A stretch of DNA of 64,000 bases from the IMG/VR virus record IMGVR_UViG_3300029297_000290; one strand, 5' to 3'. Of this stretch, positions 16,848 to 42,850 are shown piece by piece (position 1 is the stretch's first letter; each line of letters begins with the position of its first letter). The translations under genes were made by a program, and so were the position numbers. The notes below the pieces were generated by a model. The model saw only the letters and a list, made by a program, of their open reading frames with translations, did no database searches and had not been told where the DNA came from. This DNA is from an uncultured virus (IMG/VR IMGVR_UViG_3300029297_000290). Lineage: Duplodnaviria; Heunggongvirae; Uroviricota; Caudoviricetes.

Positions 16848-16936
16848 GGGAAGCAGAATATGAACGGTTATGTCCTGTCGAAATCGCAATGTGTGGTCAA
16901 CTGGCAGTATCCTGGGTTCGACTCCCAGGCTTCCCG
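16848..16936 (+). ncRNA. tRNA-like RNA with extended anticodon arm
   Basis: Acceptor GGGAAGC/GCTTCCC, canonical T arm CTGGG-TTCGACT-CCCAG, CTGTCG/TGGCAG enclosing ~21 nt. Confidence 0.65.
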
Positions 16937-27973: not shown

Positions 27974-28508
27974 GCCTTATCTCCACACATATCGGGTCTA
28001 CGGGCAGCCGAAAATCAAGAAACCGAAGGAACTGAAAGGTCTGAAGCCGAAGTTCAAGGTCAGCCAAGGGGATTGCAAGTCAGCCAAGAGAGACGATGTC
28101 TACGTTGTCGGCAATGACGTGTGGGTCTACTTCGCTGACCTTTTCAGCAGATACGCCACGTTTCCCGATGTTGGGGATATGACGCTACCGACTGCCGCGA
28201 TTGCCGCGAAATATAACTTAGACCGGAAGCGGTTCAAGACTTTCGTCTACGCTGACGGCTGGTGCCGGATCTTTAACCGCAATGAGGGTTATGTGGTATT
28301 TCCTAATCTGATTTGGGAGATGAGACGGACGAGATATGTGCCGGAGTTGATTTATGATGTCTGCGATGCGTTCATGAGGTTATCCGAGACTGACAGAGGA
28401 TTTTGCCGATGTGGTATGGATGTGCTTGATGAGCGCACCGCGACATACGAGAGAGTGATAAGCGAAATGGTTTATAAATTTGTAAAAGAAGATAGAGGAT
28501 ATGAATAA
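27966..28508 (+). CDS. Hypothetical protein
   Basis: Start MIEPYLHTY chosen because upstream frame overlaps the Cys-rich gene. Confidence 0.6.
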   Translation: MIEPYLHTYRVYGQPKIKKPKELKGLKPKFKVSQGDCKSAKRDDVYVVGNDVWVYFADLFSRYATFPDVGDMTLPTAAIAAKYNLDRKRFKTFVYADGWCRIFNRNEGYVVFPNLIWEMRRTRYVPELIYDVCDAFMRLSETDRGFCRCGMDVLDERTATYERVISEMVYKFVKEDRGYE

Positions 28509-29043
28509 ATATATTGATGAGGATGAAATCATCCAACTTTCACAGGCAATAGCATATTTTCAGACCTGTGTTAATAAAAGTAAGTCGGAGATTGAGAGGT
28601 TTTACTTCTCACGGAAGTTATCGGATTTGAGACATGAGTATGAGATAAAGCTTGTTTCCTTCAAGAGTATTCAGGAAGAGTGTCAGGAAAGGGAGATTAA
28701 GAATCGGAATCTCATGGAGAGAGATAAGGCAATAAAGGAGCTTCTAAATGAAGGCGCATTTACTAAAGAGGCATACGAAGAGCATCTTGATGCAATTCGT
28801 GTCAGAAATGAAGAGGAAAAGAGACATAAGGATCGTGAGCTTCAATCATTGAAAGAGAAATATCAGGAATATCTTGCAAAAACAAAGGCTAAAAATCCGA
28901 TGGATGAGGAATCATTCTTGAAAAGCAAGAGGTTTAGGCGGGAACCGATCAATCTTCCGGAGGTGACGTATGACGAATATGTGGAAGAAATTATTGAACT
29001 TCGCATTGACGAAAACAATGAAGTTAAACTTCATGCATTTTAG
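28501..29043 (+). CDS. Coiled-coil hypothetical protein
   Basis: 180 aa, E/K-rich. Confidence 0.65.
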   Translation: MNKYIDEDEIIQLSQAIAYFQTCVNKSKSEIERFYFSRKLSDLRHEYEIKLVSFKSIQEECQEREIKNRNLMERDKAIKELLNEGAFTKEAYEEHLDAIRVRNEEEKRHKDRELQSLKEKYQEYLAKTKAKNPMDEESFLKSKRFRREPINLPEVTYDEYVEEIIELRIDENNEVKLHAF

Positions 29044-29089
29044 TAGATTGATTTATAAAAATTGACTATCTTTGTAAAAAGTTCATTAT

Positions 29090-30502
29090 ATGGGGAAAAT
29101 AGATAATTATATTGATTTCAGCAAGGGGGCATCCAGCACGATAACGAGTCTTAAAAATAAGGCAGTGGTTGTTCCGTCATGGAAGCGTCTCAGATTAGCG
29201 TATGATGCAAGTCAACATGAGGTTTTGACAGACACACAGAACCTTCGTGATAAAATGCGACCAGATAACACGATCGAGAAGTCAACCCGCCTTTCGCTCG
29301 GCATGGAGAAACTTCTTGTCAGTAGGATGTCACAGTTCATGTTCACCATCCCACCCAAGAGGATCTATAAGAATACTGAAGGGAATGAGACCCGTCAGCA
29401 GATAGCAAAGGCGATCGAGGCAATCTACAAACATGCCCGGATCACAGCGCACAATCTGAAACGTGCGGAGCAATACTTCGCCTGTTGCGAGATATTCACG
29501 CTCTGGTATGTCACCAAGGATCCCAACACCATCTATGGATTCGATTGCGACTACAAGCTCAAATGCAAGACCTTCTCGCCCAAAGATGGGACCGCCCTCT
29601 ATCCTCTGTTTGATGAACATGATGATATGATTGCCATGTCTATCGAGTATTCGCGGACGGTAGAGACTGAGACTGTCAACTATTTCGAGACCTGGACGGA
29701 AGATCGTCACTACAAATGGAAGAACGGACTCGGTGTCGGAGGCTGGGAGTTAGCGGAGCCTCCCACAGAAATCAAGATCATGAAAATTCCCGGTATATAC
29801 CTTTCCCGCGAGGAGGCTATCTATGAGGATGTGGCGGAAATCCGCAAGGAGATTGAATATACATTATCCCGCAATGGCAATATCCTTTCCTATAATGCAG
29901 CTCCAATCCTGAAGGTTATCGGGGAACTTGTCGATGATAGCGAGAGGAAGGGTGAAGACCAGAGGGTGTGGAGGCTTGAAAAAGGTGGTGAGATCGGATA
30001 TGTGGAGTGGAATCAGTCAAACGCAGCCATGTCATATCAGATCAGTCAGCTTGTCGACCTGTTCTGGACGCTCTCCCAGATGCCTGACATATCATTCGCA
30101 AACATGCAGAAGCTCGGCAACATCGGATATGACGCACGAGAGACCCTGCTGACAGATGCACATCTGAAGGTGGGTGACGAAGCCGGGGATTGGTTGGAAG
30201 CATTTGACCGGGAGACTAACGTCATTAAGGCTTTTCTTAAAGAGATGCACACCGAATGGCGCGATGAGATTGACAACGTGGAGGTAGAGCATGCAATCAC
30301 ACCGTTTATTCAGAAAAACGAGAAGGAGGAGATAAGCAAGCGCATGACCGCCAACGGGGGTAAACCAATCGAGAGCCAACGCGAGTCAATTGTGCGTTAT
30401 GGCATGTCGCTCGATCCCAATAAAACAATGGAGGAAATCCGCAAGGAAGAAGAGGAGAGTGCGAGTGTAGCTATTCCAGACATCTTCGGGAGCGGGCAAT
30501 AA
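29090..30502 (+). CDS. Portal protein (SPP1 Gp6-like)
   Basis: 470 aa, portal-like size and pattern (LYPLFDE, YNAAPIL, SQMPDISF); own TATCTTTG promoter. Confidence 0.8.
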   Translation: MGKIDNYIDFSKGASSTITSLKNKAVVVPSWKRLRLAYDASQHEVLTDTQNLRDKMRPDNTIEKSTRLSLGMEKLLVSRMSQFMFTIPPKRIYKNTEGNETRQQIAKAIEAIYKHARITAHNLKRAEQYFACCEIFTLWYVTKDPNTIYGFDCDYKLKCKTFSPKDGTALYPLFDEHDDMIAMSIEYSRTVETETVNYFETWTEDRHYKWKNGLGVGGWELAEPPTEIKIMKIPGIYLSREEAIYEDVAEIRKEIEYTLSRNGNILSYNAAPILKVIGELVDDSERKGEDQRVWRLEKGGEIGYVEWNQSNAAMSYQISQLVDLFWTLSQMPDISFANMQKLGNIGYDARETLLTDAHLKVGDEAGDWLEAFDRETNVIKAFLKEMHTEWRDEIDNVEVEHAITPFIQKNEKEEISKRMTANGGKPIESQRESIVRYGMSLDPNKTMEEIRKEEEESASVAIPDIFGSGQ

Positions 30503-30519
30503 AGGAGCCTATTGCCATC

Positions 30520-30556
30520 AAAGACCACGGTTCACCAATAGTCGTGGTCTTTCTTT
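30520..30556 (+). terminator. Terminator after portal
   Basis: AAAGACCACGG...TCGTGGTCTTT plus T-rich tail. Confidence 0.65.
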
Positions 30557-30700
30557 ATGCCTACACGAAAAAAAGAGACGGTCCCCACATACGCGGAAAC
30601 CGTCTCAAAGGATTGGTCGAAGACTCTCAAAGACTGAACTCCAACAGTTCCTGTCCTAAAGAGTGTAGCGCGTTCTTAATCTTAAACTTGACTTACGTTT

Positions 30701-31129
30701 TTATTGCTTCTCTTTTGTTGATTTGACAAACAATCCCACAAGGGAGACTCCTCCAATGCCAAATAGGAACAAGGCGGCATTCTCATGTCCGGTGAAAACA
30801 AATGTAGTGGCAAGACCCATAAGGATAACAGCAAGGGAATATCCCATATATTGACCTCTCTTGATAAGATTGATTTTCTTAAAGGCAATCTCCTTGTTGT
30901 CCTTGCGAGTCTCAGTCCTTTCCGTTATCTGGCTATCTTGTTCCTTTTCCGCCATCTGCATTATTCTTTCAGCTCCATTGGGAATGATATCATCATATCC
31001 CTTCATGATATTGGGAGGAGGAAGAGGTGCGGATAAAAACTCTGTTTTCACAAAAGCTGAAATGACATGAGAATCCGAAGATTGCTCAAGAGGCGCGGAA
31101 TACGAAACGGATTCTGGATCCGGATACAT
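30701..31129 (-). CDS. DUF2335-like membrane protein (moron)
   Basis: SAPLPPP...YDDIIPNGAERIMQMAEKEQ + two TM helices. Confidence 0.85.
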   Translation of the reverse strand: MYPDPESVSYSAPLEQSSDSHVISAFVKTEFLSAPLPPPNIMKGYDDIIPNGAERIMQMAEKEQDSQITERTETRKDNKEIAFKKINLIKRGQYMGYSLAVILMGLATTFVFTGHENAALFLFGIGGVSLVGLFVKSTKEKQ

Positions 31130-31169
31130 ATTTCGCGCCTCAGGTGAATTTGAATCGCGTACAGAGGGA

Positions 31170-31361
31170 TTATTTGATTAGTCTTGATTCATAAGCCTTG
31201 GTGATATAAGATCCAACCTGTCTCCAATAGTCGGCTATGTTCTGTGCATCGGTCTTATTGTTGGAATCTATCGGTTCAACATCAATTACGGACGGCCAGA
31301 ATATGCTTGCCATTCCAATAAGGAAGCTGCCTCCCATAATTTTCTTTAATTGAGCTTTCAT
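31170..31361 (-). CDS. Small moron protein upstream of DUF2335-like gene
   Basis: SFLIGMASIF...TDAQNIADYWRQVG; leftward TAATTTTG promoter at 31389-31396. Confidence 0.65.
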   Translation of the reverse strand: MKAQLKKIMGGSFLIGMASIFWPSVIDVEPIDSNNKTDAQNIADYWRQVGSYITKAYESRLIK

Positions 31362-31635
31362 ACTCTCATGAGGTTTTAAATTATTGTGCAAAATTATATA
31401 ATAAAAACCAAAACTATTATTGAATCCATTCTCAATTTAAGAATTAATATGAATTTTTAACTATTACCGTAATGTCATGTTCTATCCTTCAAAATTCCCT
31501 CACAACCCTAATGTGAGGGAATTTTATAGCCCTCCGAGGTCAAAATCGAACGAAACCGAGGGTCTGTTTGAAAAATTTTTCGAAAAAATTCCTAATTTTG
31601 TTTGCGCATTGCTAAATTGTTATTAATTTTGCGGT

Positions 31636-31941
31636 GCCACATTGATTGATAGGCTTAACCTATTTCGCGGAGCAAGCGGTTATTTGCTCAATATAATTGG
31701 GCTTTTTTTATGCCCACACATTAGGATATTGGCGGTTGCCTATACGTAAGTTAAGATTTAGCCTTTCGAGGTGAAGTCCATCAACTTTCAGCAGCGTATA
31801 GGTGACCCTCTCTTAAAATAGGCGATTGTCTATTGCGTAAAGAACGTGACCCCGTGAAAATGTGGGCTTATCAATCTTGTGGCAGCGCAATATGGCAGTC
31901 GCTTTTCCTATGCCTATCACGTTCAAAAAAGCCACAAGATG
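31636..31941 (+). ncRNA. C4-like antisense RNA leader of the antirepressor operon
   Basis: Two long hairpins (31734-31807, 31821-31903); loop of second is complementary to 31636-31654 and 31931-31940. Confidence 0.65.
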
Positions 31942-32766
31942 AACGAATTAGTAATTCAAGGAGGCAATGGTCAAGATGTGACCACCTCACAAATTGTTGC
32001 ACAAGTATTTGGCAAACGTCATTCAGACGTTCTTCGAGATGTGCGAAATCTCAAATGTAGCGATGATTTCCGTAAACGCAATTTTGCGCTGATGGTGGAA
32101 ATGAAAGAGTTACCACAAGGAGGAGCGCAAAAATCGGAATTTTACGAAATGACCAAGGACGGGTTCTCATTCCTCGTCATGGGTTACACGGGCGCAAAGG
32201 CAGGTCAGTTCAAGGAGCAGTTCATCGCGGAGTTCAACAAACGCGAGATGATGCTGAAAAGCGATGACTACATCCTCATGCGCTCGCAGCAGATTCTTCA
32301 GAAGAGAATCGAGTTGGCAGAGCAGAAGGTGAAGCAGCTCGAGGCAGACAACGAGACCAAGCGCCAGCGCATCGAGCAGCAGACGGAGACCATCGAGCAG
32401 CAGAACGTCACCATCAAGGAGCAGGCTCCCAAGGTAAACTACTACGACCAGACGCTCCAGTCGGTCAACACACTCACCACAACGCAGGTCGCAAAGGAAA
32501 TCGGGCTCGACGCATCGAAGCTCAACAGGAAGATGAACGAGGCGGGCGTGATATTCCGTCAGTCGGGGCAGTGGCTCCTTCGCCAGCCGTATTCGTCATG
32601 GAACCTCTCGGCTACACGGACGCAGACCTACACGCGGTCTGACGGCACCACCGGGACATCGACCTACACGGTGTGGAACGAGCGCGGCAGACGCTTCATC
32701 CATGCACTGCATGAGAGCGGCTACAACGCAAGGGCGGCGGTCAAGATGATAAAGAGTGCGGAATGA
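31939..32766 (+). CDS. Rha-family / KilAC(ANT) antirepressor
   Basis: TTSQIVAQVFGKRHSDVLRDVRNL...MTKDGFSFLVMGYTG; C-terminal APKVNYYD...TTTQVAKEIG...TVWNERGR. Confidence 0.9.
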   Translation: MNELVIQGGNGQDVTTSQIVAQVFGKRHSDVLRDVRNLKCSDDFRKRNFALMVEMKELPQGGAQKSEFYEMTKDGFSFLVMGYTGAKAGQFKEQFIAEFNKREMMLKSDDYILMRSQQILQKRIELAEQKVKQLEADNETKRQRIEQQTETIEQQNVTIKEQAPKVNYYDQTLQSVNTLTTTQVAKEIGLDASKLNRKMNEAGVIFRQSGQWLLRQPYSSWNLSATRTQTYTRSDGTTGTSTYTVWNERGRRFIHALHESGYNARAAVKMIKSAE

Positions 32767-32769
32767 GAA

Positions 32770-33156
32770 GTGGAGCCCGAAAAAACGATGGAAACAATGA
32801 AGACGATAGATTCAATAGAGAGCGCGATATTTGAGTCGGCGAGAGAGTGGGTATGCCTCCATGACGCGGACGGCAATCAGGAGAAGGGCAACACCGTGGA
32901 GATGATCCTCCGACTGGTGTCGGATTGTGTGGGCGACCTGATGATGCCCGACATGGAGCCGATTGTCAGGGCGGTGTGCCACTACATCACCACTAAGGCG
33001 AAGGGAGAGGAGGCCGACAAGGCTGTCGAATCCCTCACAAAGCTGTTGGAGATAAAGTCACGCATCGACGATACACGTCCTTACTTCGAGATACTATCCT
33101 TCGGTGTGGAAGACTACCTTGAACAGAAGCTGCTGTTCCAGATAAACGGCAATTGA
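32770..33156 (+). CDS. Hypothetical protein
   Basis: 128 aa ORF after antirepressor. Confidence 0.6.
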   Translation: MEPEKTMETMKTIDSIESAIFESAREWVCLHDADGNQEKGNTVEMILRLVSDCVGDLMMPDMEPIVRAVCHYITTKAKGEEADKAVESLTKLLEIKSRIDDTRPYFEILSFGVEDYLEQKLLFQINGN

Positions 33157-33199
33157 CAGAATTTAAGTCCCGACATTGGGATATGTCAGAGTTATTTGC

Positions 33200-33297
33200 T
33201 AACTTTGCAATGGCGAATGCCACCCGTGAGGATTGCGGTTCGATTCCGTCTCACATTTAGGGGTGTCTGATTATTTCAGAAACCCCTTTATTTTTTT
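33200..33297 (+). ncRNA. Candidate sRNA with tRNA T-arm-like minihelix
   Basis: TAACTTTG promoter 33200; GTGAG..GCGG-TTCGATT-CCGT-CTCAC; terminator 33259-33297. Confidence 0.5.
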
Positions 33298-33454
33298 AGT
33301 ATAATTATCAAACCTTAGGTCTTTATAACCTAATTCTTTTACTTTTCCATATTGGTTGATAAGAACAATATCCCCCAATGGAAGATTGTTGCGTTTCATG
33401 TAATTTGTTCGATGTAAATTTCCTAAAATATTTTTATATATTAAACTTATTTAT

Positions 33455-33534
33455 TAATTTTGTGTCATACTTGAAAATATTATTACATGCGGGGGGTGTA
33501 CCGAGAAATCGGAGCCTCCCGTACCATTTTTTTT
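33455..33534 (+). ncRNA. Candidate sRNA convergent on the MuF toxin 3' end; hairpin ends in ACCA
   Basis: TAATTTTG promoter 33455; stem 33488-33523, CCA, T8. Confidence 0.5.
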
Positions 33535-36172
33535 AATATAGCTTATTAAACATTATGCCGCTTTGTGTGAGGCAAATGATTCTTTTAAATCTTCTGAAAG
33601 GCATTCCTTTATTTATCATGCCAATGTAACGTGATATGGCACGTGTAAATTCGGGATCATTATATTCTGTATTTGGTAGAAATATTACTGCTACTTCCAC
33701 ATTATCCTTGGATGAACAGTGTTTTAAGCCTCGAACTATATTGTTGGGGGTTCCTGTTTCACATGAGGCTAATTCAAATAGAGAACCGTCCCAAGAACCT
33801 TCAGTGTATCGTTCTCCAATTCCCTTTCCAGATTCTTTCTCTAAAATAACTGAATGGCCTTGTTGGAAACCAATTTCTTGCACCTTGGTTTCATACCAGC
33901 CCTTCTCTTTGTCAATGTTATGTTCACTATGCGTAGCTTTCAGGCCTCCATTCTTGGGATTGAACTCCACATCCTTGTAATTCTTATCATTCTTCAGTCT
34001 CTCGTATTCTTTTCGGTTCGCTTCTATACGAGCTATTTCTTGGGGAGATTTTGTATTATCCTCTCTTGTGTCCGTTGATTTATTCAATATCCCATCCACG
34101 ACCTTCTTGTTATCCTTGATGAAATACGGCAGCGTTCCGCGTCCTTCGGCAGCCGTGATACGGTCTTCATTATCATGTATCCAATCTTTGAATTTGTCCG
34201 GTACGTCAATGACCTCATTGACGGATGGCTGCTCCTCTTCACTGTCGGGGTCATAATCCATGAACTCATCCTCGGTCTTCAGTATAGGGATGCAGTAGCA
34301 CATGCAGTTTGACCCCCAGAAGCATTTGCCGTTTCTGTGGATATACATGATGTGATTCTTTGATAAGGTCAGGTCGTAGACTTTCCCGGAATAATTGACA
34401 ACATCTTTTTGAAATACCGTAGCGGTGGATGAATGGCATTCCGAGATTTTCCAACAAGAATAATTGCTTCTTATCAAAGTACCATCCTTCTTTTTGCTGA
34501 CACTTGGAGGTTGAAGCGCGAAGGAGGGTCTGTTCCCGACCTTCAGGATTAATTCGGAAAGATCTGCGGCAAGTTGCTCGGACGTTGTGAAATAGACACG
34601 CTCTTCATTCTTACCCCGGAAAAGATGGCCATGATTCCCGATGAAGCATTTAGGGCCTCTTATATATCCATCACACTTCAGGAAGGCATCAAGGAATATG
34701 CGTATCTGTCGCGGCGATGCGTTTTTTATCTCCGAGGGGATAAACTTATTCCGGCATGTCCCGAACCGGGCAACATATCGGTTCAATGCCGAGTTGTAGA
34801 TATTCACATTGTCTTTTGAAAGTTTAGGATTATATTCCATCCTCCGGGCAACATCGATAATCGGGAGTCGTGCAGGCTCACCATCCTTCTGCGAGATGAC
34901 CACTCCGGTTCCATGCTGAATGCTACCATCGGAAAGATAGTAACCCATGAACTCGCAGAAATCATCAAAATTCACCTCCCTATCCTCCAATTGGAAAGAA
35001 GGCACATCGGCAGCATGATAATGAGCACCCCTATAAAATGCTCCGAGAGATTTGCGGAAATTCATTGCTTCGGCATATCTTATCTCATCTGTGTTCTTCC
35101 CCAGATACACCATACGATGCTCCGGAGTCACCAAACAATCAAGAGAGCGATTGTGGAACCATATCATCTTCCCATCTCGTTCGTAGCATTGTTGAGTCAC
35201 GATGTTCACCCATTCCATTTCTTTCGTGGCGGGATTAAGAGACAATATAGCATCATCGGGAAGCACATCTTTAAAGAGCTTCCATCCACGTCCGGTCAAT
35301 ACTTCGCTATCATCTGAATAGCACTGCGGATGCCACCCCTTGAAGTCAAACGACTTCGGATATTTTCCGGCAAGCTCATCGCAGATGTCCTCCACATGGT
35401 GTCCGTTCTGTGTTGTCTTCACCTCGAATCCGACAACAAAATCAAACTGCTCCCACCGTTTCTGTTCGGCGGTGCGGTAAGCCATATTAATCTCGGTGCG
35501 TGCGAGTCTTTGCGCGTTCCTTGCAGATGAGCGGTAGACACCGGTACCTGGATGATATGCCTTGGCATTATCAGACAATTGCAGGTTGCCGAACTTGTCA
35601 CGGATCTTGCGGAAACGTTTGTCCGGTTCCTTCAGATATTGCTTTACATCGGCGGCGAGACTCATTGCAGACGTGCCGGGATCAATGGCGGCAGACAGAC
35701 TCTCCTCCAGCTCTGTCTTATATTGCTCCGTCAGATTCCACACACGCTTGCTTAGATTCATGCCGTTTTCCACACGATTCTGAAAAGCCTTCAGTGCATC
35801 CGAGTTTAACCGGAAATAGCGGGTGTACTCCTCACCATTGCGGTCAGTTCCGGTGTATACTTTCAGTACCTTCTGCGCCACAAGATCCTGAACGAGATTG
35901 CTCTGTTTCCATTCTTCGGATGTGGAGGACATGATCACACCCATCAGGTTATTCATGAACTCTTTCTGTAATTTCAGAAATGCGGATTTCGTTTCCGGAT
36001 AATCGTTGAAGGAGAATGGTTTGGCCTGGTCAATATCAAAGAGAGATGCCAACGAGAGAGATTCGCGAAGCATCTTATCATATACACTGTTTATTGCAGA
36101 TAGGTATTTTTCTATCCGCATTTTAAGCCGTTTGTTATTCCGTTGGAAATTCGGCAATCTTACTTTCCCCAT
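33533..36172 (-). CDS. MuF (SPP1 gp7-like) minor head protein with intein and C-terminal nuclease-toxin-like domain
   Basis: NAQRLARTEINMAYR, ICDELAGKYP, GWHPQ|intein|CMCYCIP; C-terminal PD-(D/E)XK-like CdiA-CT-type region. Confidence 0.88.
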   Translation of the reverse strand: MGKVRLPNFQRNNKRLKMRIEKYLSAINSVYDKMLRESLSLASLFDIDQAKPFSFNDYPETKSAFLKLQKEFMNNLMGVIMSSTSEEWKQSNLVQDLVAQKVLKVYTGTDRNGEEYTRYFRLNSDALKAFQNRVENGMNLSKRVWNLTEQYKTELEESLSAAIDPGTSAMSLAADVKQYLKEPDKRFRKIRDKFGNLQLSDNAKAYHPGTGVYRSSARNAQRLARTEINMAYRTAEQKRWEQFDFVVGFEVKTTQNGHHVEDICDELAGKYPKSFDFKGWHPQCYSDDSEVLTGRGWKLFKDVLPDDAILSLNPATKEMEWVNIVTQQCYERDGKMIWFHNRSLDCLVTPEHRMVYLGKNTDEIRYAEAMNFRKSLGAFYRGAHYHAADVPSFQLEDREVNFDDFCEFMGYYLSDGSIQHGTGVVISQKDGEPARLPIIDVARRMEYNPKLSKDNVNIYNSALNRYVARFGTCRNKFIPSEIKNASPRQIRIFLDAFLKCDGYIRGPKCFIGNHGHLFRGKNEERVYFTTSEQLAADLSELILKVGNRPSFALQPPSVSKKKDGTLIRSNYSCWKISECHSSTATVFQKDVVNYSGKVYDLTLSKNHIMYIHRNGKCFWGSNCMCYCIPILKTEDEFMDYDPDSEEEQPSVNEVIDVPDKFKDWIHDNEDRITAAEGRGTLPYFIKDNKKVVDGILNKSTDTREDNTKSPQEIARIEANRKEYERLKNDKNYKDVEFNPKNGGLKATHSEHNIDKEKGWYETKVQEIGFQQGHSVILEKESGKGIGERYTEGSWDGSLFELASCETGTPNNIVRGLKHCSSKDNVEVAVIFLPNTEYNDPEFTRAISRYIGMINKGMPFRRFKRIICLTQSGIMFNKLY
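34307..35323 (-). mobile_element. Intein (339 aa) with LAGLIDADG homing endonuclease
   Basis: Block A CYSDDSEVLT, block B LVTPEHRM, EFMGYYLSDG and FLDAFLKCDG, VYDLTL...WGSN|C. Confidence 0.9.
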
Positions 36173-36191
36173 GAACTTTTTGAATTTGGTA

Positions 36192-36224
36192 CGAAATTAA
36201 CAAAAAGTATTTATATTTTAAATA
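36192..36224 (-). promoter_or_regulatory. Conserved phage promoter copy upstream of MuF
   Basis: Reverse complement TATTTAAAATATAAATACTTTTTGTTAATTTCG matches the other three copies. Confidence 0.6.
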
Positions 36225-36344
36225 TATTGATGTGTATATATGGATGATTCTTAATAATCAATATAAAATTGACTCAGTGGGATCAATTTCAACCTAATAC
36301 GATTTCACATTTGCATAATTCCATAAAAATTAGTAATTTTGGAG

Positions 36345-36413
36345 TGCTTTTAGGAGCTGTTGACTCAGCTCTATCTTTTGGATAGCGTTGCCTGTGAAGG
36401 TAGCGCTTTTTTT
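36345..36413 (+). ncRNA. Candidate trans-acting sRNA (~70 nt)
   Basis: TTTG-N20-TAATTTTG promoter 36310-36341; 5' TGCTTTTAGG; terminator AGCGTTGCCT-GTGA-AGGTAGCGCT-T tract. Confidence 0.6.
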
Positions 36414-36422
36414 GTTTAAAAA

Positions 36423-36455
36423 TATTTGAAATTTAAATACTTTTTATTAACTTTG
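36423..36455 (+). promoter_or_regulatory. Conserved phage promoter upstream of packaging genes
   Basis: TATTTGAAATTTAAATACTTTTTATTAACTTTG. Confidence 0.7.
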
Positions 36456-36492
36456 AACTATATTATCTATCTTTAATTCAGAAGGTATAGCA

Positions 36493-36696
36493 GTGCTAAA
36501 AATCAATATCTCAAACAATGGAAAGCATTGGGATAAGAAGGTCAGTATTTTCGGCATCCCGATATACCATCGCCACGACTATACCGCAGAGCCGGAAAGA
36601 AAGACCGTAGGGTTCAACTGCCTTCCGTCCGACCTGGTAGAGATAGATGATGATTGTTTTCCTGAAGAAAAGCAACATAAGAATCAAAACAAATAA
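36493..36696 (+). CDS. Hypothetical protein
   Basis: 67 aa, SIFGIPIY motif. Confidence 0.5.
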   Translation: MLKINISNNGKHWDKKVSIFGIPIYHRHDYTAEPERKTVGFNCLPSDLVEIDDDCFPEEKQHKNQNK

Positions 36697-36777
36697 GGAT
36701 TTCCAGGCTCCAGGGAGTCTGTTTACTCGGGTGTTGGATTCGGTTATCAGCGAGAAAAATTAAAAATAACAGCGAGA

Positions 36778-37206
36778 ATGAATCAAAAAAATATAGAACC
36801 GCATCAATTCAAGAAGGGTCAATCCGGCAACCCGAAAGGTCGTCCTGTGAATAGGGCAGACAGATATGTCGAGAAGAAGTTCGGGAAGAAAAGATTGAGG
36901 GAATTGAAGAATGAATGTTCAGCCGCTGAAATAAACTCGGCGGAACAGTATGTATTGCACATGAGCAAGCCGGAGATAGAGTCTGTCAAAGATGACGAGG
37001 AAGCCCCCAATTACTTCAGGAGTCTGTGTAATTCAAGCGTGACAGACTTCTCAGTAGGCAGGACAACAACAGTTGACAGGCTTCGCGACCGTCAATACGG
37101 AAGCGTGACGCAGGATGTCAACGTTTCCGGAGAGGTGGGCTTCATGAGCATACTACGCGAGAACGGAATCATAGATGAAGAGGGAAACCTCACCGAAGGA
37201 GAATAA
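36778..37206 (+). CDS. Terminase small subunit-like (DUF5681 N-terminus)
   Basis: HQFKKGQSGNPKGRP. Confidence 0.75.
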   Translation: MNQKNIEPHQFKKGQSGNPKGRPVNRADRYVEKKFGKKRLRELKNECSAAEINSAEQYVLHMSKPEIESVKDDEEAPNYFRSLCNSSVTDFSVGRTTTVDRLRDRQYGSVTQDVNVSGEVGFMSILRENGIIDEEGNLTEGE

Positions 37207-37218
37207 GGCAATCAATGT

Positions 37219-37710
37219 ATGGCGAAGGGGAGCGGAAATACAAGATGTTCATCACATGGTGGGAATCCTTATCATGTCAATGGAGTACGCAAGGAATATT
37301 GGGAGTTGCCTCAATCTCAGCAGCGCACAGTGCAATCCCTGATGAAGACCTATAGCAAGGGGATGAGGGATAATCTTCGCGAGAAAACAGTTATGATGAA
37401 ATCTGACGGTAAAGAAATTCAAGTTGGATTTAATCGAGAAGGTTGCGACCACCTTGTAAGGGATGCTATGATGAAGTTGAGTGGTAAATATTTTAGTAAG
37501 AACTCCCTTTATAATTTTGATAGAATATTGGAGAAAGCGGTAGAATTACCATCATCACATGCGTTATACAAGGAACGGCATGATGGGAAGACCAAATTCT
37601 TTAAGTATACTGACAATGAGGGGCGAGGGGTAATTATTAAAGTTGCTTATAATCCCACGGCAGGTGATAAGAAACGTTACTTTCCATACTCACTTGATGA
37701 TATTTCATAA
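37219..37710 (+). CDS. MAKGSG-leader protein with BECR-fold (LPD3-like) putative RNase domain
   Basis: N-terminal MAKGSGNTR; IQVGFNREGCDHL...FFKY...VIIKV...YFPYSL pattern. Confidence 0.55.
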   Translation: MAKGSGNTRCSSHGGNPYHVNGVRKEYWELPQSQQRTVQSLMKTYSKGMRDNLREKTVMMKSDGKEIQVGFNREGCDHLVRDAMMKLSGKYFSKNSLYNFDRILEKAVELPSSHALYKERHDGKTKFFKYTDNEGRGVIIKVAYNPTAGDKKRYFPYSLDDIS

Positions 37711-37851
37711 AAAAAGGCTCGGTCCGCCACTTCCGCATAGCGAGCGGAGGGAAGCCGAGCGAGGGATAGCAACCGCCGGAAGCACTTCTTTTGAAGCATC
37801 TGGATCGGAAATACACTATCTAACGAGATAACTCCTTTGATTGCAAAATTA
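37711..37851 (-). ncRNA. Candidate sRNA convergent on the RNase-like gene
   Basis: Leftward TAATTTTG at 37844-37851; stem GCTCGGT/GCCGAGC 37717-37760 and U tract at the gene stop. Confidence 0.45.
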
Positions 37852-37877
37852 ATAAGAAATCCTCAACAATAAAAATA

Positions 37878-38639
37878 ATGTTCAACGAATTATCCAGATA
37901 CGACGATTATATCCCCGACTGTCTATTCCCGACAGACAATCAGATGGAGATACCGACCTTGCGGCTCGATGTTCAGCCAAGGTTGGTGGAGATACCGGCA
38001 TATTGCTTCGGGGAGCAAAAACGAACCACCAATATGTATGGTCACGGCATATTGCACTTCTATACCGATGACTACCGCTGGCAATCCGTCTATAAGCACC
38101 CTGAGAAGATATTGAAATACAATCCCGGTTCAATCGTTGAACCTAACTATTCGCTTTTCAATGAAACGCCGATGGCTTTCGGCTTGCAGGGTATCTATAA
38201 GAAACGGTGGATAGGCAGACAGATGCAGGAGCGCGGTATCGGAGTGTTCGTTGACCTGAATGTTGCCAATAAGTTCTATGCCGCTAATCTTTTCGGTGTC
38301 CCTAAAGGCTACGGAGCGTTCTGCACTCGTGGATATTCCGACCGCATTCCGGCTTTGGAATATGAATATATGATTGCTCAGAGGGTGGCTGATGGCAATA
38401 GGATGACCTTCGTGGTTTATGGAGGTGGCGAGGATGTAAAGGCTTGGTGTCGCGACCACGGCTGCGTCTACATCACGCCAATCGTATCAATCAAGAGCAA
38501 GCTCAAAGCAATAGAGAGGATGAAGGAGAATGTCGCATCGTTCGACAATGCGTCACTTATCGAGTCTTTACCTGTAAAACAATTCCCGACCGCGAAGGAA
38601 CTTTATGCGAAACAAGTAATAGATTTTAACAACCAATAA
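37878..38639 (+). CDS. DUF4417-like protein
   Basis: LHFYTDDYRW...VEPNYSLF...IYKKRWIGRQMQERGI. Confidence 0.75.
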   Translation: MFNELSRYDDYIPDCLFPTDNQMEIPTLRLDVQPRLVEIPAYCFGEQKRTTNMYGHGILHFYTDDYRWQSVYKHPEKILKYNPGSIVEPNYSLFNETPMAFGLQGIYKKRWIGRQMQERGIGVFVDLNVANKFYAANLFGVPKGYGAFCTRGYSDRIPALEYEYMIAQRVADGNRMTFVVYGGGEDVKAWCRDHGCVYITPIVSIKSKLKAIERMKENVASFDNASLIESLPVKQFPTAKELYAKQVIDFNNQ

Positions 38640-38654
38640 AATATTGGATGATAC

Positions 38655-40208
38655 ATGGTCATGTTCGATTCGCTCAAAGATGAAAAATTATTCATAGCAT
38701 ATCACCGGCTCATAACCCTTTGGAAAGAGGACTGGAACCGCTTTGTCAGGGATGCTCTTGGCGCAACTCTCGACCGCGAGCAACAGCAGATAATATCCTC
38801 TGTCCAATTCAACCCACGTACCTCCGTGGCTTCCGGCACATCACGGGGAAAGGACTTCGTGGCGGCATGTGCGGCACTCAGTTTCCTTTATCTTACCCCG
38901 CGATGGAACACGAGGGGTGAGCTTGTGCAGAATACCAAGATAGCACTCACAGCACCGACAGACAGACAGGTCAAGATAATCATGATGCCGGAGATCTCCC
39001 GGCTATGGAACCGGGCGAAGACACGCGTCCCCGGATGGATGGGGCGGCTTAATTCCTTCAGCATCCGGTTTGACAATGACGAATGGTTCCTTGCCGGATT
39101 CAAAGCTGATGAAAATAACCATGAGGCGTGGTCGGGATTCCATGCCGTCAACACCATGTTTGTCGTCACCGAGGCTTCCGGTATGTCAGAGAACATCTTC
39201 TCGGCGATAGAGGGCAACCTTCAGAATAACTCCCGGATCCTGATAGTCTTCAATCCCAACACCACTACCGGATATGCAGCCAAGAGCCAGAAGGAAAGTC
39301 GATGGGCGAAGTTCAAGCTCAATTCGCTTAATGCGGAGAATGTTATCCGCAAGAAGGTGATTTACCCCGGACAGGTGGACTACGAATGGGTGAAGGATAA
39401 GGTTGACCTTTGGTGTTCGCCGATTCAGAAATCAGACTTCAATGAAGGTGAGGGGGATTTTGAATGGGAAGGGAGATATTACCGACCTAATGACCTTTTC
39501 CGCATCAAGGTGCTCGGCATGTTCCCGAAGGTCTCCAGCGATGTTCTGATTCCTTACGAGTGGATAGAACTTGCCAACAGACGATGGGAGGAATACCGCC
39601 GTGAGGGATTCAAGACCGCGAAATCATGTCGCCTTGGAATTGATGTGGCGGGTATGGGTAGAGATAGTAGCGTTCTCATCCCGCGCTTCGGCAGTTATGT
39701 CCCGGAGATCATCAGTCACCACTCGGCAGGTCAGGCAGACCACATGAAGGTGGCGGGTATGGCTGTGCAATATCTCCGCTATAAGGGATGCAAAGCGTTT
39801 GTAGATACCATCGGCGAGGGTGCCGGAGTCTGGGCGCGATTGAGAGAACAGGGATGGAAGAATGCATTCTCATGTAAATTCTCCGCCGGAGCGAGAGAAC
39901 TTCACGATGTAACCGGACAATACACATTTGCCAATATGAAGGCATATCTCTATTGGGCGGTTCGTGATTGGCTCGATCCCAAAAATAATAACCTTCCGGC
40001 ATTTCCACCGGATGACCGATTCATGGAGGAGGCTACCGAAATCAAATATTTCTTCCAAAGTAACGGTGCGATAGCGATGGAGAAGAAGGAGGAGACAGCC
40101 AAGAGACTGAGGAGATCACCGGACACCTTCGATGCCCTTGCAAACACATTCTATCCATACAATCTTAGCATTTTGTCAGATGAAGCATTGCTAAATGCAG
40201 GACTATAA
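38655..40208 (+). CDS. terL: Terminase large subunit
   Basis: VASGTSRGKD, VVTEASG, FNP, LGIDVAGMGRDSS, VDTIGEG, SPDTFDALA. Confidence 0.92.
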   Translation: MVMFDSLKDEKLFIAYHRLITLWKEDWNRFVRDALGATLDREQQQIISSVQFNPRTSVASGTSRGKDFVAACAALSFLYLTPRWNTRGELVQNTKIALTAPTDRQVKIIMMPEISRLWNRAKTRVPGWMGRLNSFSIRFDNDEWFLAGFKADENNHEAWSGFHAVNTMFVVTEASGMSENIFSAIEGNLQNNSRILIVFNPNTTTGYAAKSQKESRWAKFKLNSLNAENVIRKKVIYPGQVDYEWVKDKVDLWCSPIQKSDFNEGEGDFEWEGRYYRPNDLFRIKVLGMFPKVSSDVLIPYEWIELANRRWEEYRREGFKTAKSCRLGIDVAGMGRDSSVLIPRFGSYVPEIISHHSAGQADHMKVAGMAVQYLRYKGCKAFVDTIGEGAGVWARLREQGWKNAFSCKFSAGARELHDVTGQYTFANMKAYLYWAVRDWLDPKNNNLPAFPPDDRFMEEATEIKYFFQSNGAIAMEKKEETAKRLRRSPDTFDALANTFYPYNLSILSDEALLNAGL

Positions 40209-40225
40209 TTTTTTTATTTAAAATA

Positions 40226-40258
40226 TATTTGAATTTTAAATACTTTTTAATATCTTTG
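40226..40258 (+). promoter_or_regulatory. Conserved phage promoter upstream of head operon
   Basis: TATTTGAATTTTAAATACTTTTTAATATCTTTG. Confidence 0.7.
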
Positions 40259-40341
40259 CAAAACGAAATCTAAAAGTTCGGGACAATCACAAATTGTCTC
40301 ATGTACAGAATATTCTTACTACTACTACTTATTTCATTATA

Positions 40342-41055
40342 ATGAACAAGAGACAACGTAAAGTTTTACAGATGTTGAAACCGAAAGTGAAGGCGCTCGG
40401 GTTCAACGAAAAGGAGCTGAAGAGTGTCGCTGCCAAGATTGCCGACAATCTGACCTCCGAAGAAGATGCCTCAGATGAGGATGTCAACGCAGAGATTGAA
40501 ACATCCATTGAAGCGGTGCTCCCATACCTTGTTCTCGGTCAGTCATACGCCAACCGCGTGATCAACGACTCCAAAAAGAACGTGAACGAGGAAGATGATG
40601 ACGACGATGAGGAGGATGATGAGGAAGAAGTCATCGTGAAATCAAAGTCCAAGTCAAAAAAATCCAAAGCAAAAGACAGCAAATTTGATGAACTCACGGA
40701 GCTTATCAAAACCCTTACGGAGAGTAACAAGGCTCTTGCCTCGGACATTGCCTCCATCAAGGGAGAGAAAGTGACGAATACCCGTCGTGAAAAGCTGGAG
40801 ACTCTTCTGAAGGGAACAGGCTCATTCGGCAAGGGGATTCTCCGCAGCTTCGACAAGCTCTCATTTAAGGATGAGGACGAGTTCAATGATTTCCTGACGG
40901 AAGCGGAGGAGGATTTGAAAACCTTCAACCAGGAACGTGCCAACGCCGGACTGGAGCTTCTCGGAGCACCGGGTACCGGAGGAAGTACGAAAGGAAAGAA
41001 GGATGAACCCAAAGTTTTATCAGAGGATGAGATCAAGGCAATAGCCGCCATGTGA
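40342..41055 (+). CDS. Capsid scaffolding protein
   Basis: Charged, acidic run, helical; position before decoration/capsid genes. Confidence 0.7.
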   Translation: MNKRQRKVLQMLKPKVKALGFNEKELKSVAAKIADNLTSEEDASDEDVNAEIETSIEAVLPYLVLGQSYANRVINDSKKNVNEEDDDDDEEDDEEEVIVKSKSKSKKSKAKDSKFDELTELIKTLTESNKALASDIASIKGEKVTNTRREKLETLLKGTGSFGKGILRSFDKLSFKDEDEFNDFLTEAEEDLKTFNQERANAGLELLGAPGTGGSTKGKKDEPKVLSEDEIKAIAAM

Positions 41056-41080
41056 TCACCTTGCAAATTCAAGCAATTAA

Positions 41081-41479
41081 ATGGGAGCAATCGCAGATTT
41101 AACAGAGAAGGGCGCAGTCTATTCCGACGGCATGGATTCCATCGTGATACGTCGCTGCGGTGCATGCCTTATCGGCGGATGCACACTCGACATGACCGGA
41201 TTCCCGGACGATACCGTTCGTGCCGGACATTTCGTGATTCATGAGACAATCACCGACACCTACAAGCCTCTTGGCGTTAAGGATGGTGCATACGTCGCAA
41301 TTCCAGAAGGTCACACCTATGAGGGTGTTGTGCTTGCATCAAAGTCAGCGAAGCAGCCGTTTGTGTCAGTGATGTATGAGGGAGAGGTCAATGATCTTGC
41401 ATCGCCATACCCCGTGACCGACACTATCAAAGAGGCGCTAAAGACAACCCTTCCGGGTCTTTATTTCAAACACGACTAA
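41081..41479 (+). CDS. Head decoration / minor capsid protein
   Basis: 132 aa beta-rich protein between scaffold and capsid. Confidence 0.65.
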   Translation: MGAIADLTEKGAVYSDGMDSIVIRRCGACLIGGCTLDMTGFPDDTVRAGHFVIHETITDTYKPLGVKDGAYVAIPEGHTYEGVVLASKSAKQPFVSVMYEGEVNDLASPYPVTDTIKEALKTTLPGLYFKHD

Positions 41480-41494
41480 AAATCAAAACAGATT

Positions 41495-42850
41495 ATGGCA
41501 CAGCCTTCAATTTTTCAAAAATTCATCGAGCAGTTCATGCCGGTTCTCGGACTTTATATCACCGAGAAAGTCAACGGCAAGAGTGAACGCGAGAGGACAT
41601 ATCTTTTCAAACAACGTCTGACCCCGGTTTACTCTCCCGATCAGAAATGGGAGGGAACCTCGGCAAACACACGCTACGTTGCCGCAGACTATGTGGCACT
41701 CGACTCGCCGCTTCCCCTCAAACGTCGCAGTCAGATCTCCTCATCCAACGGCAAGCTGCCGAAGATCGGCATGAGAAAGGTGCTCAACGAGACTGACATT
41801 AATAGCATCAACATCATGGAGGGACAACTCTCCCAGATAAAGGATCCGGAAAGCTCGGCATACGTCCAGAAGAAGCGTCAGATTATCAAGAAACTCGCCG
41901 ACGACCCGACCGCCTGCGCCATCGGTCTCGATGAGCTTAATGAGTTCGCATACCAGTATGGTATCTCCAACGGCATCGTTCTCGTCAAAGGTGATCCGAA
42001 CGATGGTAATACTGGAATTGGTATGCGCGTAGATTATGGCTACAAGGATTCCAACATCTTCCGCACGGAGACCCCAGAGGATTGCACTGGTGATGATTTT
42101 CAGCGCATCGTTGACAAGGCTAACGCCGATGGCAATTCTATAGCCGTTGCGATGATCTCCAAGTGGAGACTTGACCGCATACGCCGCACACGTTGGGCGC
42201 GTGAGCTTGCCGCCGATTACAAGGAGCAGACCTACACCGACACTACAAAACTCCCCGTCCCCTCTGTCAAGACCTTCTCCGAAGCCTTTGAGAACGAGTA
42301 TGGATTTGGCTTCATCGTGGTCAATCGCACCATTCTTCAGGAGAAGAATGGCAAGGACATTCCTGTTAAGCCGTTCAACCAAGATCGCGTTGTTTTCCTT
42401 CCAAATGCTGATAAGGATGGTTCGCTCGTTTACGGTACTCTTGCCGAAATGACCCATCCGGCGAAGCATGTGGAGTATTCCACCGTTGACGAGTACAAGC
42501 TCATTTCTCGCCTGTGTGTCACGGAGCCTTCACTTACCGAAGTAACGAAGGGACAGGCTCTTGTCCTTCCGGTGATAGAGGATGTAGACGCAATCTATGT
42601 TCTTGACTTCTCTAAGGCTGTGGAGCTTGACCCCTCCGATGCGACCGATGAGGGAGCGGTAGATACCAACATCACCATCTCCGGCACACAGTATCAGAAG
42701 GCAGCTGTGATCAAAGCTCTCAATGACATGGGAGCAAACGTGAAGGCATCAGCTAAGGATGCTGCGGTCATTAAGGCTATTAATGCCCTCAGCGACGAGG
42801 ATACCGCCAAACTGATGGAGGCTATCAAGGACTCAAAAGCATCCGTGTGA
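41495..42850 (+). CDS. Major capsid protein
   Basis: 451 aa; VAADYVALDSPLPLKRR...GKLPKIG pattern of Bacteroidetes phage capsids; synteny. Confidence 0.85.
   Translation: MAQPSIFQKFIEQFMPVLGLYITEKVNGKSERERTYLFKQRLTPVYSPDQKWEGTSANTRYVAADYVALDSPLPLKRRSQISSSNGKLPKIGMRKVLNETDINSINIMEGQLSQIKDPESSAYVQKKRQIIKKLADDPTACAIGLDELNEFAYQYGISNGIVLVKGDPNDGNTGIGMRVDYGYKDSNIFRTETPEDCTGDDFQRIVDKANADGNSIAVAMISKWRLDRIRRTRWARELAADYKEQTYTDTTKLPVPSVKTFSEAFENEYGFGFIVVNRTILQEKNGKDIPVKPFNQDRVVFLPNADKDGSLVYGTLAEMTHPAKHVEYSTVDEYKLISRLCVTEPSLTEVTKGQALVLPVIEDVDAIYVLDFSKAVELDPSDATDEGAVDTNITISGTQYQKAAVIKALNDMGANVKASAKDAAVIKAINALSDEDTAKLMEAIKDSKASV

Follow-up and report, generated by a model that had tools for sequence, protein, structure and literature searches.

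A convergent RNA resembling a tRNA acceptor end behind the nuclease tail of a phage MuF protein: a candidate RNA antitoxin

How can a temperate phage carry a putative tRNase on its own head protein with no immunity gene of the usual size behind it? To our knowledge, the immunity factors described for polymorphic toxins are proteins, and for many phage RNase tails no antidote has been identifiable. The locus considered here lies in a 64,000-nucleotide stretch of DNA from an uncultured virus (hereafter the window), a Bacteroidales-type temperate phage with integrase, DnaB, portal and tape measure genes; two further sequences, a near-identical virus record and a metagenome contig, carry the same region. 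Its MuF gene (Table 1) has portal, terminase and capsid-type genes around it. Relative to these head genes, the entire MuF gene lies in inverted orientation, and a Rha cassette stands between it and the portal. An intein-like insert (about 34307-35323), recognized by eye and by a weak LAGLIDADG_3 match below the cut-off, sits inside the MuF domain and has an apparent LAGLIDADG remnant. The window protein, its domain split by the intein, gives no PF04233 match; homologous tails are fused to PF04233 in 3 of 39 cases. Leader-like elements were also seen in this region. A long structured leader (31620-31880) precedes the Rha/KilAC antirepressor gene (31879-32766) and has neither an Rfam match nor a homologue in the fetched loci. 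Paired leader elements with strong hairpins (36316-36415 and 36184-36420; z -4.4) lie between the divergent MuF and terminase-small-subunit genes, and a 46-50-bp piece recurs elsewhere in the phage.

A preliminary description of this locus, made from the sequence, held that no immunity gene of typical size lies 3′ of MuF. The ORF list of the window bears this out, a 42-aa ORF being the only exception on the same strand. Sequence searches found no homologue of this ORF and gave no support to the idea that it is perhaps a remnant of an earlier toxin tail.

Table 1. Features of the MuF locus and of the LPD3-like locus, in window coordinates.
Feature	Position	Strand	Basis or remarks
Unit 1, promoter box TAATTTTG	33455-33462	+	box in 36/38 toxin clusters
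Unit 1, AT-rich 5′ leader, 26 nt	33463..33488	+	
Unit 1, acceptor-stem minihelix with A73-CCA	33489..33526	+	stem 33489-33522, ACCA 33523-33526
Unit 1, U-run (eight T), overlaps MuF stop	33527-33534	+	
MuF stop codon	33533-33535	-	
MuF-type minor head protein, 879 aa	33533..36172	-	ORF list; tail homologues fused to Phage_Mu_F and annotated minor head protein
C-terminal PD-(D/E)XK domain of CdiA_C kind, predicted tRNase	33536..34075	-	AF2 (pLDDT 95), Foldseek, VIA
42-aa ORF	33271..33399	-	ORF list; stop 33271-33273
Unit 2	33200..33297	+	promoter box TAACTTTG 33200-33207, small hairpin, T-arm, terminator-like hairpin with U-run
LPD3-like protein, stand-alone, probable BECR-fold RNase	37219..37710	+	
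Unit 3	37708..37851	-	TAATTTTG 37851-37844, about 130 nt of structured RNA with hairpins, U-run at LPD3-like stop

The last 180 residues of MuF have 279 relatives at E 0.001 (among 50% representatives), and their nuclease-like character, proposed earlier, is supported by fold. The top Foldseek match of the AF2 model (pLDDT 95) is 4g6v_A, the CdiA-CT of 1026b (E 1e-3), which is also the top VIA match (Z 10.9, rmsd 3.0, 124 residues aligned; next match 6.1), at a sequence identity of 14%. The window domain does not match PF18451; 5 of 39 homologues do so weakly (best E 0.001), and among the atlas neighbors of the domain PF18451 is present on 12-22% of members. A search of solved-structure sequences with A1 returned nothing, a search of viral contigs with the single protein found no relative, and A1 matched in only 2 of 401 Bacteroidota genomes. 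The conserved columns E62, E/D92, E/D101 and K118/K123 are spaced like E187, D214, D223 and K242, the residues through which CdiA-CT 1026b cleaves tRNA-Ala in the acceptor stem (PMC9086364, accessible text). Judging from this spacing, E761, E791, E800 and K817 or K822 of the full protein are candidate catalytic residues that would match the catalytic center of 1026b residue by residue. By these matches the MuF tail has a PD-(D/E)XK fold with an E-D-D-K-type center; its toxicity, nuclease activity and tRNA target are predicted from a fold match at 14% identity.

Facing the MuF stop lies unit 1. The preliminary description had proposed an opposite-strand promoter at 33455 and an acceptor-like stem in an RNA that ends at the toxin stop, and all of these were found in place. 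The promoter box has the form TAnnTTTG, which we take to be the Bacteroidetes -7 box, with the start presumably about 4 nt behind it; promoters of this type fall outside the scope of a sigma-70 scan. Of the 63 ORFs of the window, 3 have an antisense TAnnTTTG no more than 150 nt from the stop, two of them being the MuF toxin and the LPD3-like gene. The leader of unit 1 has counterparts in L080 (28 nt) and L091 (30 nt), while most other relatives start at the stem; from these sequences, the long leader is a trait of one lineage. An alternative in which the window lost its -7 box and 33455 is a -33 box was considered and ruled out, the long leader being found also in L080 and L091. The minihelix consists of a 7-bp stem (including G1·U72, C2-G71 and G3-C70), an extension, an internal loop and a GAAA-capped hairpin, and it is the best match in the window to the RNA model R1, which was built partly from unit 1. 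A fold of unit 1 is seen for the + strand (z -3.6) but not for the - strand (z -0.3), and unit 1 is therefore no terminator of the MuF mRNA. ARAGORN found no tRNA genes in the window, and no cloverleaf with anticodon, D and T arms was present; Rfam gave no match at gathering score at these RNAs, either in window 28000-42000 or in 37 loci (17 and 20 further).

A survey of MuF-CT homologues, suggested in the preliminary description, found the convergent promoter and the acceptor-like stem to be conserved, with covariation. After removal of five truncated or read-through loci, the 107 homologue loci with a match gave 102 usable ones in 38 clusters at 80% identity. In 36 of 38 clusters the antisense box is no farther than 150 nt from the stop, compared to 7 of 172 other ORFs in the same loci, and the combination of promoter, 7-bp stem and NCC was called in 27 of 38 clusters vs. 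1 of 172 control ORFs; at the window itself, the automatic call took a wrong stem. Strict calls that demanded neither feature (n = 26) have G1 in 24 and U73 in 25. The alignment A5 covers 32 of the 38 clusters (no call in L064, L074 and L078; wrong calls in L001, L075 and L077 dropped), and its 96.8% pairing is partly circular because the A5 rule demanded G1, the stem and C74. The informative part of the covariation test is the two-sided changes, found in 6 of the 7 stem pairs (43 cells; 0 of 500 shuffles; at most 8 cells in slid controls). Pair 1-72 is G·U in 29 of 32 clusters, and pair 2-71, always paired, is C-G in 19 and U-A in 13, with at least 5-6 switches on the toxin tree. The toxins that share this stem are about 50% identical. 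G1 stands 4 nt after the promoter box in 27 of 32 clusters, and the encoded 3′ end has a full CCA in 19 and CC in 27; L074 and L078 depart from this pattern. Downstream of the CCA, most relatives have a separate terminator hairpin, which overlaps the last codons of the toxin.

With R1 the RNA was detected in L064 as well, and in all but one of the five excluded loci; that one continues in L190. L077 carries a partial tandem duplication of the RNA downstream of the toxin. The RNA contains no conserved ORF (inner lengths occur in all three frames, and slot ORFs of 0-38 codons are unconserved), nor was a conserved small ORF found on either strand across the 38 clusters, where the next genes are varied phage genes. 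Expression was sought with the commoner relative L018: assembled contigs of 4 of the 19 listed runs, which carry no strand or end information, cover parts of the toxin gene, and those of two studies stop at 2982-2984, near the terminator.

Which tRNA the stem resembles was judged against the 35 tRNA ends of one Muribaculaceae genome carrying such a locus. The family stem, mostly G1·U72, G3-C70 and U73-CC, is like the ends of host tRNA-Gly; among the 35 ends, G1-C72, C2-G71, G3-C70 and U73 occur together only in Gly tRNAs. Host tRNA-His has G1-C72, U2-A71, G3-C70 and C73, and is the only one with a genome-encoded CCA. Host tRNA-Leu(UAG) shares its three pairs with Gly and has A73. Only the window and L091, whose toxins are sisters (99/94), have A73 in the RNA, a single event that is suggestive at most. 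The family consensus suggests tRNA-Gly (and His) as the toxin target, and for the A73 variant of the window a different tRNA, such as Leu(UAG), may be the target. More speculatively, G1·U72, which is near-constant in the family and missing from those host tRNAs, may block charging or cutting of the RNA.

Of the three units, it is unit 1 for which the tRNA likeness holds; in unit 2 it is limited to the T-arm sequence, and unit 3 has no NCCA end and no T-loop. For unit 2, the promoter and the T-arm were as described, the latter (33235-33249, inside a 5-bp helix) being a genuine tRNA T-arm sequence. Its proposed end at the stop of a short leftward ORF was not: the stop of the 42-aa ORF lies inside the last hairpin (33259-33297), which is terminator-like and gives z -4.3 on both strands. 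No homologue of unit 2 was found with a T-arm pattern (40 loci, mostly real tRNAs, none alike), and none relevant with a looser pattern among 106 distinct of the 120 matches listed; in an nhmmer search of 392 fetched loci only the two near-identical records matched, and no partner toxin was found. A second intergenic T-loop hairpin in the window (16905-16935, also given as 16915) is not beside a toxin, and such hairpins therefore occur elsewhere without one. Tentatively, and with some doubt, unit 2 might be regarded as an orphan module left by tail replacement.

The same layout had been said to recur at 37711-37851 behind another RNase-like gene. A structured RNA does occupy the same slot there, with no recognizable tRNA mimic. 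The LPD3-like gene matches PF18798 at E 5e-5, below the cut-off, and 6 of its 15 homologues carry PF18798; many BECR/RelE chains top the VIA list of its model, yet within the common range (best Z 4.6), and Foldseek found nothing. Unit 3 folds weakly (z -1.3), and no loci of close homologues were found for it. It fits the pattern of the LPD3 family, a box and a structured RNA behind the gene.

This pattern extends to other nuclease families. In 301 Bacteroidales genomes, 16 of 17 PF18451 matches are followed by a convergent box, hairpin and terminator, the exception being a match below the cut-off that looks unrelated. The RNAs of CdiA_C toxins differ by subfamily, and several end, by eye, in a stem and NCC with other acceptor identities. 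Among 21 LPD3 matches, two inside a 3158-aa protein were left out, and the convergent box was found at 18 of the 19 examined (14 of 14 over the cut-off); these RNAs are structured, not acceptor-like. A survey of MuF proteins served as control (30 loci from 47 matches, 29 assessable). The convergent non-coding unit accompanies 17 of 17 nuclease-type tails, compared to 0 of 7 short MuFs and 0 of 5 other tails (L364, L369, L370, L379 and L381). Six of the nuclease-type tails were assigned to their class by non-blind visual inspection, and six are genes already counted among the CdiA_C matches. In the nuclease-type L363 the unit lies at about 205 nt. In G002 (contig C24, 214500-216300; L181, L183, L185 and L349), two tandem CdiA_C-type tails have their own RNA each, and the first tail is frameshifted with its RNA kept. 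Behind other RNase tails (other CdiA_C subfamilies, LPD3, PBECR2), the slot holds different RNAs, particular to each.

Behind MuF tails of other kinds, small protein genes were seen. In L369 (metallopeptidase-like) and L370 (papain deamidase), a convergent, leaderless TAnnTTTG promoter drives a 78- or 83-aa ORF, respectively; L379 has an antisense 78-aa ORF and L364 a same-strand 64-aa ORF. The small genes of L369, L370 and L379 are likely unannotated immunity genes, and the small genes behind studied MuF toxins are immunity genes (PMC5576092 and PMC11699363, accessible parts). Since such genes sit there behind other MuF tails, the RNA fills the slot of small protein genes. Behind the nuclease tails themselves, no protein immunity gene was found across the 38 clusters.

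R1 hits occurred in 5 of 151 genomes, namely the seed, the toxin array L186/L215 and three chromosomal copies (L187-L189); among 151 phylum-wide genomes, only the seed genome was hit. L187, L188 and L189 are intergenic minihelix RNAs with a promoter and no toxin nearby, and the RNA of L187 is nearly identical to the phage RNA of L073. A subfamily pattern gave four viral matches, two of which are convergent to the toxin. In L190 (1-300) the minihelix RNA lies on the toxin's own strand, the module being apparently inverted, and in L191 (1350-1540) the minihelix ends a longer RNA with further structured modules, behind an unrelated gene. The toxin-less copies (L187-L189, L191) show that the RNA also occurs apart from the toxin; they fit orphan immunity, and also a toxin-independent role. 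L075 has a T-arm RNA similar to unit 2 in front of its minihelix, downstream of the toxin, and the longer RNAs of L191 and L075 are perhaps stacked RNA antidotes. Toxin and RNA also move as cassettes outside phages. In L215 (5400-11500 and 14465-16001; G522 contig C26), such cassettes lie between 47-bp CRISPR repeats beside a regular CRISPR array, like giant spacers; one is LPD3, two are CdiA_C-like and one is a minihelix with a toxin remnant. Rfam RNAs of other kinds were seen in related phages, RT-3 at L019:3504-3684 and c4-2 at L016:5082-5163.

On this comparative evidence, and in line with the preliminary description, unit 1 is probably a substrate-mimic RNA antitoxin of the MuF tRNase with a type III-like action. 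The prophage would transcribe it from its own housekeeping promoter, and trimming would leave a minihelix that ends in NCCA and reproduces the acceptor end of the target tRNA, a structure that the covariation bears out. The RNA would then occupy the substrate site of the toxin as a poorly cleaved or sacrificial decoy, and the lysogen and the virion-building cell would therefore be protected. We give slightly less than an even chance to the broader proposal of an RNA immunity layer for the virion RNases of Bacteroidota phages, in which at least three unrelated families (CdiA_C-like, LPD3 and PBECR2) would each have a substrate-copying RNA that discloses the target; modules would be swapped and stacked as cassettes, some of them stored between CRISPR repeats, and orphans would provide chromosomal poly-immunity.

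Other readings of unit 1 account for parts of these data. Bacillus type I systems have a convergent, tail-to-tail layout, as do these loci, and because the RNA overlaps the toxin transcript in most relatives, where the terminator covers the last toxin codons, a cis-antisense RNA could pair with the 3′ end of the toxin mRNA and trigger its decay, the hairpin only stabilizing the RNA. This is unlikely: it leaves unexplained why a 7-bp stem with G1·U72, G3-C70 and U73-CC is kept across such divergent toxins and why the RNA is restricted to nuclease tails. Complementarity to the toxin mRNA is true for the convergent loci and false for L190, whose same-strand RNA speaks against antisense action, and the orphan copies have no target mRNA. 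Ordinary features are a still weaker contender, and very improbable: bidirectional terminators or the footprint of an insertion at a tRNA end, together with chance promoter boxes. The stem in the window does run directly into the U-run, the 64 kb contain 48 copies of TAnnTTTG, and the last hairpin of unit 2 can also terminate the upstream Rha operon. Against this stand the enrichment of the box over control ORFs, the separate terminator after the CCA in most relatives and the lack of a tRNA gene in the window; and the possibility, raised in the preliminary description, that the hairpins are only bidirectional terminators fails for unit 1 with its one-strand fold and conserved stem, both strands of which covary.

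Two further readings accept the tRNA likeness. The RNA could be a decoy against tRNA-attacking defences of the host or of rivals, such as a toxSAS reading the tRNA-Gly acceptor stem, with the toxin slot merely convenient. FaRel2 selects tRNA-Gly/Thr via acceptor pairs and modifies a minihelix (10.1101/2024.07.05.602228, accessible text), and the orphan copies would fit such a role; however, each toxin family has its own RNA type, swapped together with the tail, A73 is shared by sister toxins alone as one event, and short MuFs lack the RNA, and we hold this reading to be improbable. There is also a small chance that the RNA partners the nuclease without inhibiting it, as a cofactor, a guide or a substrate with a working cleavage product, for example one co-packaged in the virion. 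Such a partner would show the same strict linkage and substrate likeness, and these data do not distinguish inhibition from activation; against it, the RNA holds the position and orientation of the small protein genes behind non-nuclease tails, which are immunity genes in studied MuF systems, and no protein immunity gene is present.

If the antitoxin reading of unit 1 is true, a 40-70-nt tRNA-end mimic would explain how these phages survive their own nucleases, and RNA antitoxins would extend far beyond the known type III families. The tRNA target of each toxin would be predictable from its RNA, and the RNA would offer a direct route to the cloning and assay of otherwise lethal nucleases. The role of MuF toxins in gut phages would become testable.

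In type III toxin-antitoxin systems (ToxIN, TenpIN, CptIN) and in AbiF, an RNA antitoxin blocks an RNase toxin directly; in the former, the antitoxin is a tandem-repeat array upstream of a toxin with a ToxN/MazF-like fold and is co-transcribed with it. The putative direct block of an RNase by an RNA is the idea shared with unit 1. In contrast, the RNA here is a single unit rather than a repeat array, lies downstream, is usually convergent and has its own promoter; it gives no evidence of a pseudoknot and mimics a tRNA end, and the PD-(D/E)XK fold of its toxin is unrelated. Unit 1 would therefore act like a type III system but outside the ToxIN, TenpIN and CptIN families as these are defined. 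With the MuF polymorphic toxins (Jamet 2017, PMC5576092; Bxa/BAH/Bsi, PMC11699363; accessible parts of both), the locus shares a probable MuF N-terminus with a variable C-terminal toxin, a unit, here putatively protective, right behind the stop and stacked extra modules; the immunity factors described in those parts are proteins, whereas here the unit is a structured, non-coding RNA under a promoter of its own. CdiA-CT/CdiI of 1026b (PDB 4g6v; PMC9086364, accessible text) has the same PD-(D/E)XK fold, a similar acidic/lysine spacing and cleaves a tRNA acceptor stem; here the domain is carried by a phage head protein at 14% identity, with no CdiI gene and a predicted target of Gly/His type, not Ala. 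In polyvalent proteins (Iyer 2017, PMC5512222), the PBECR and LPD3 domains are predicted phage RNases, MuF-fused or stand-alone, as here; the accessible text names no RNA partner for them, whereas here a convergent structured RNA lies behind each such gene. Literature searches, mostly outside subscription journals and without supplementary files (neighborhoods may be covered in those of Jamet 2017 and Iyer 2017), found no description of RNA immunity for MuF, CdiA_C, LPD3 or PBECR toxins, and none is named in the accessible parts of PMC5512222, 10.64898/2026.08.28.747851 and 10.1101/2024.07.05.602228. A tRNA-end RNA in the antidote slot suggests an undescribed kind of RNA antidote. Its nearest parallel in recognition comes from the toxSAS work, which also treats phage tRNAs against tRNA-targeting defence and in which, according to its accessible text, a minihelix with Gly acceptor pairs suffices for recognition by a tRNA-attacking toxin (10.1101/2024.07.05.602228); there the minihelix is synthetic and the toxin belongs to host defence, whereas here the minihelix is encoded in the genome, beside the phage's own nuclease.
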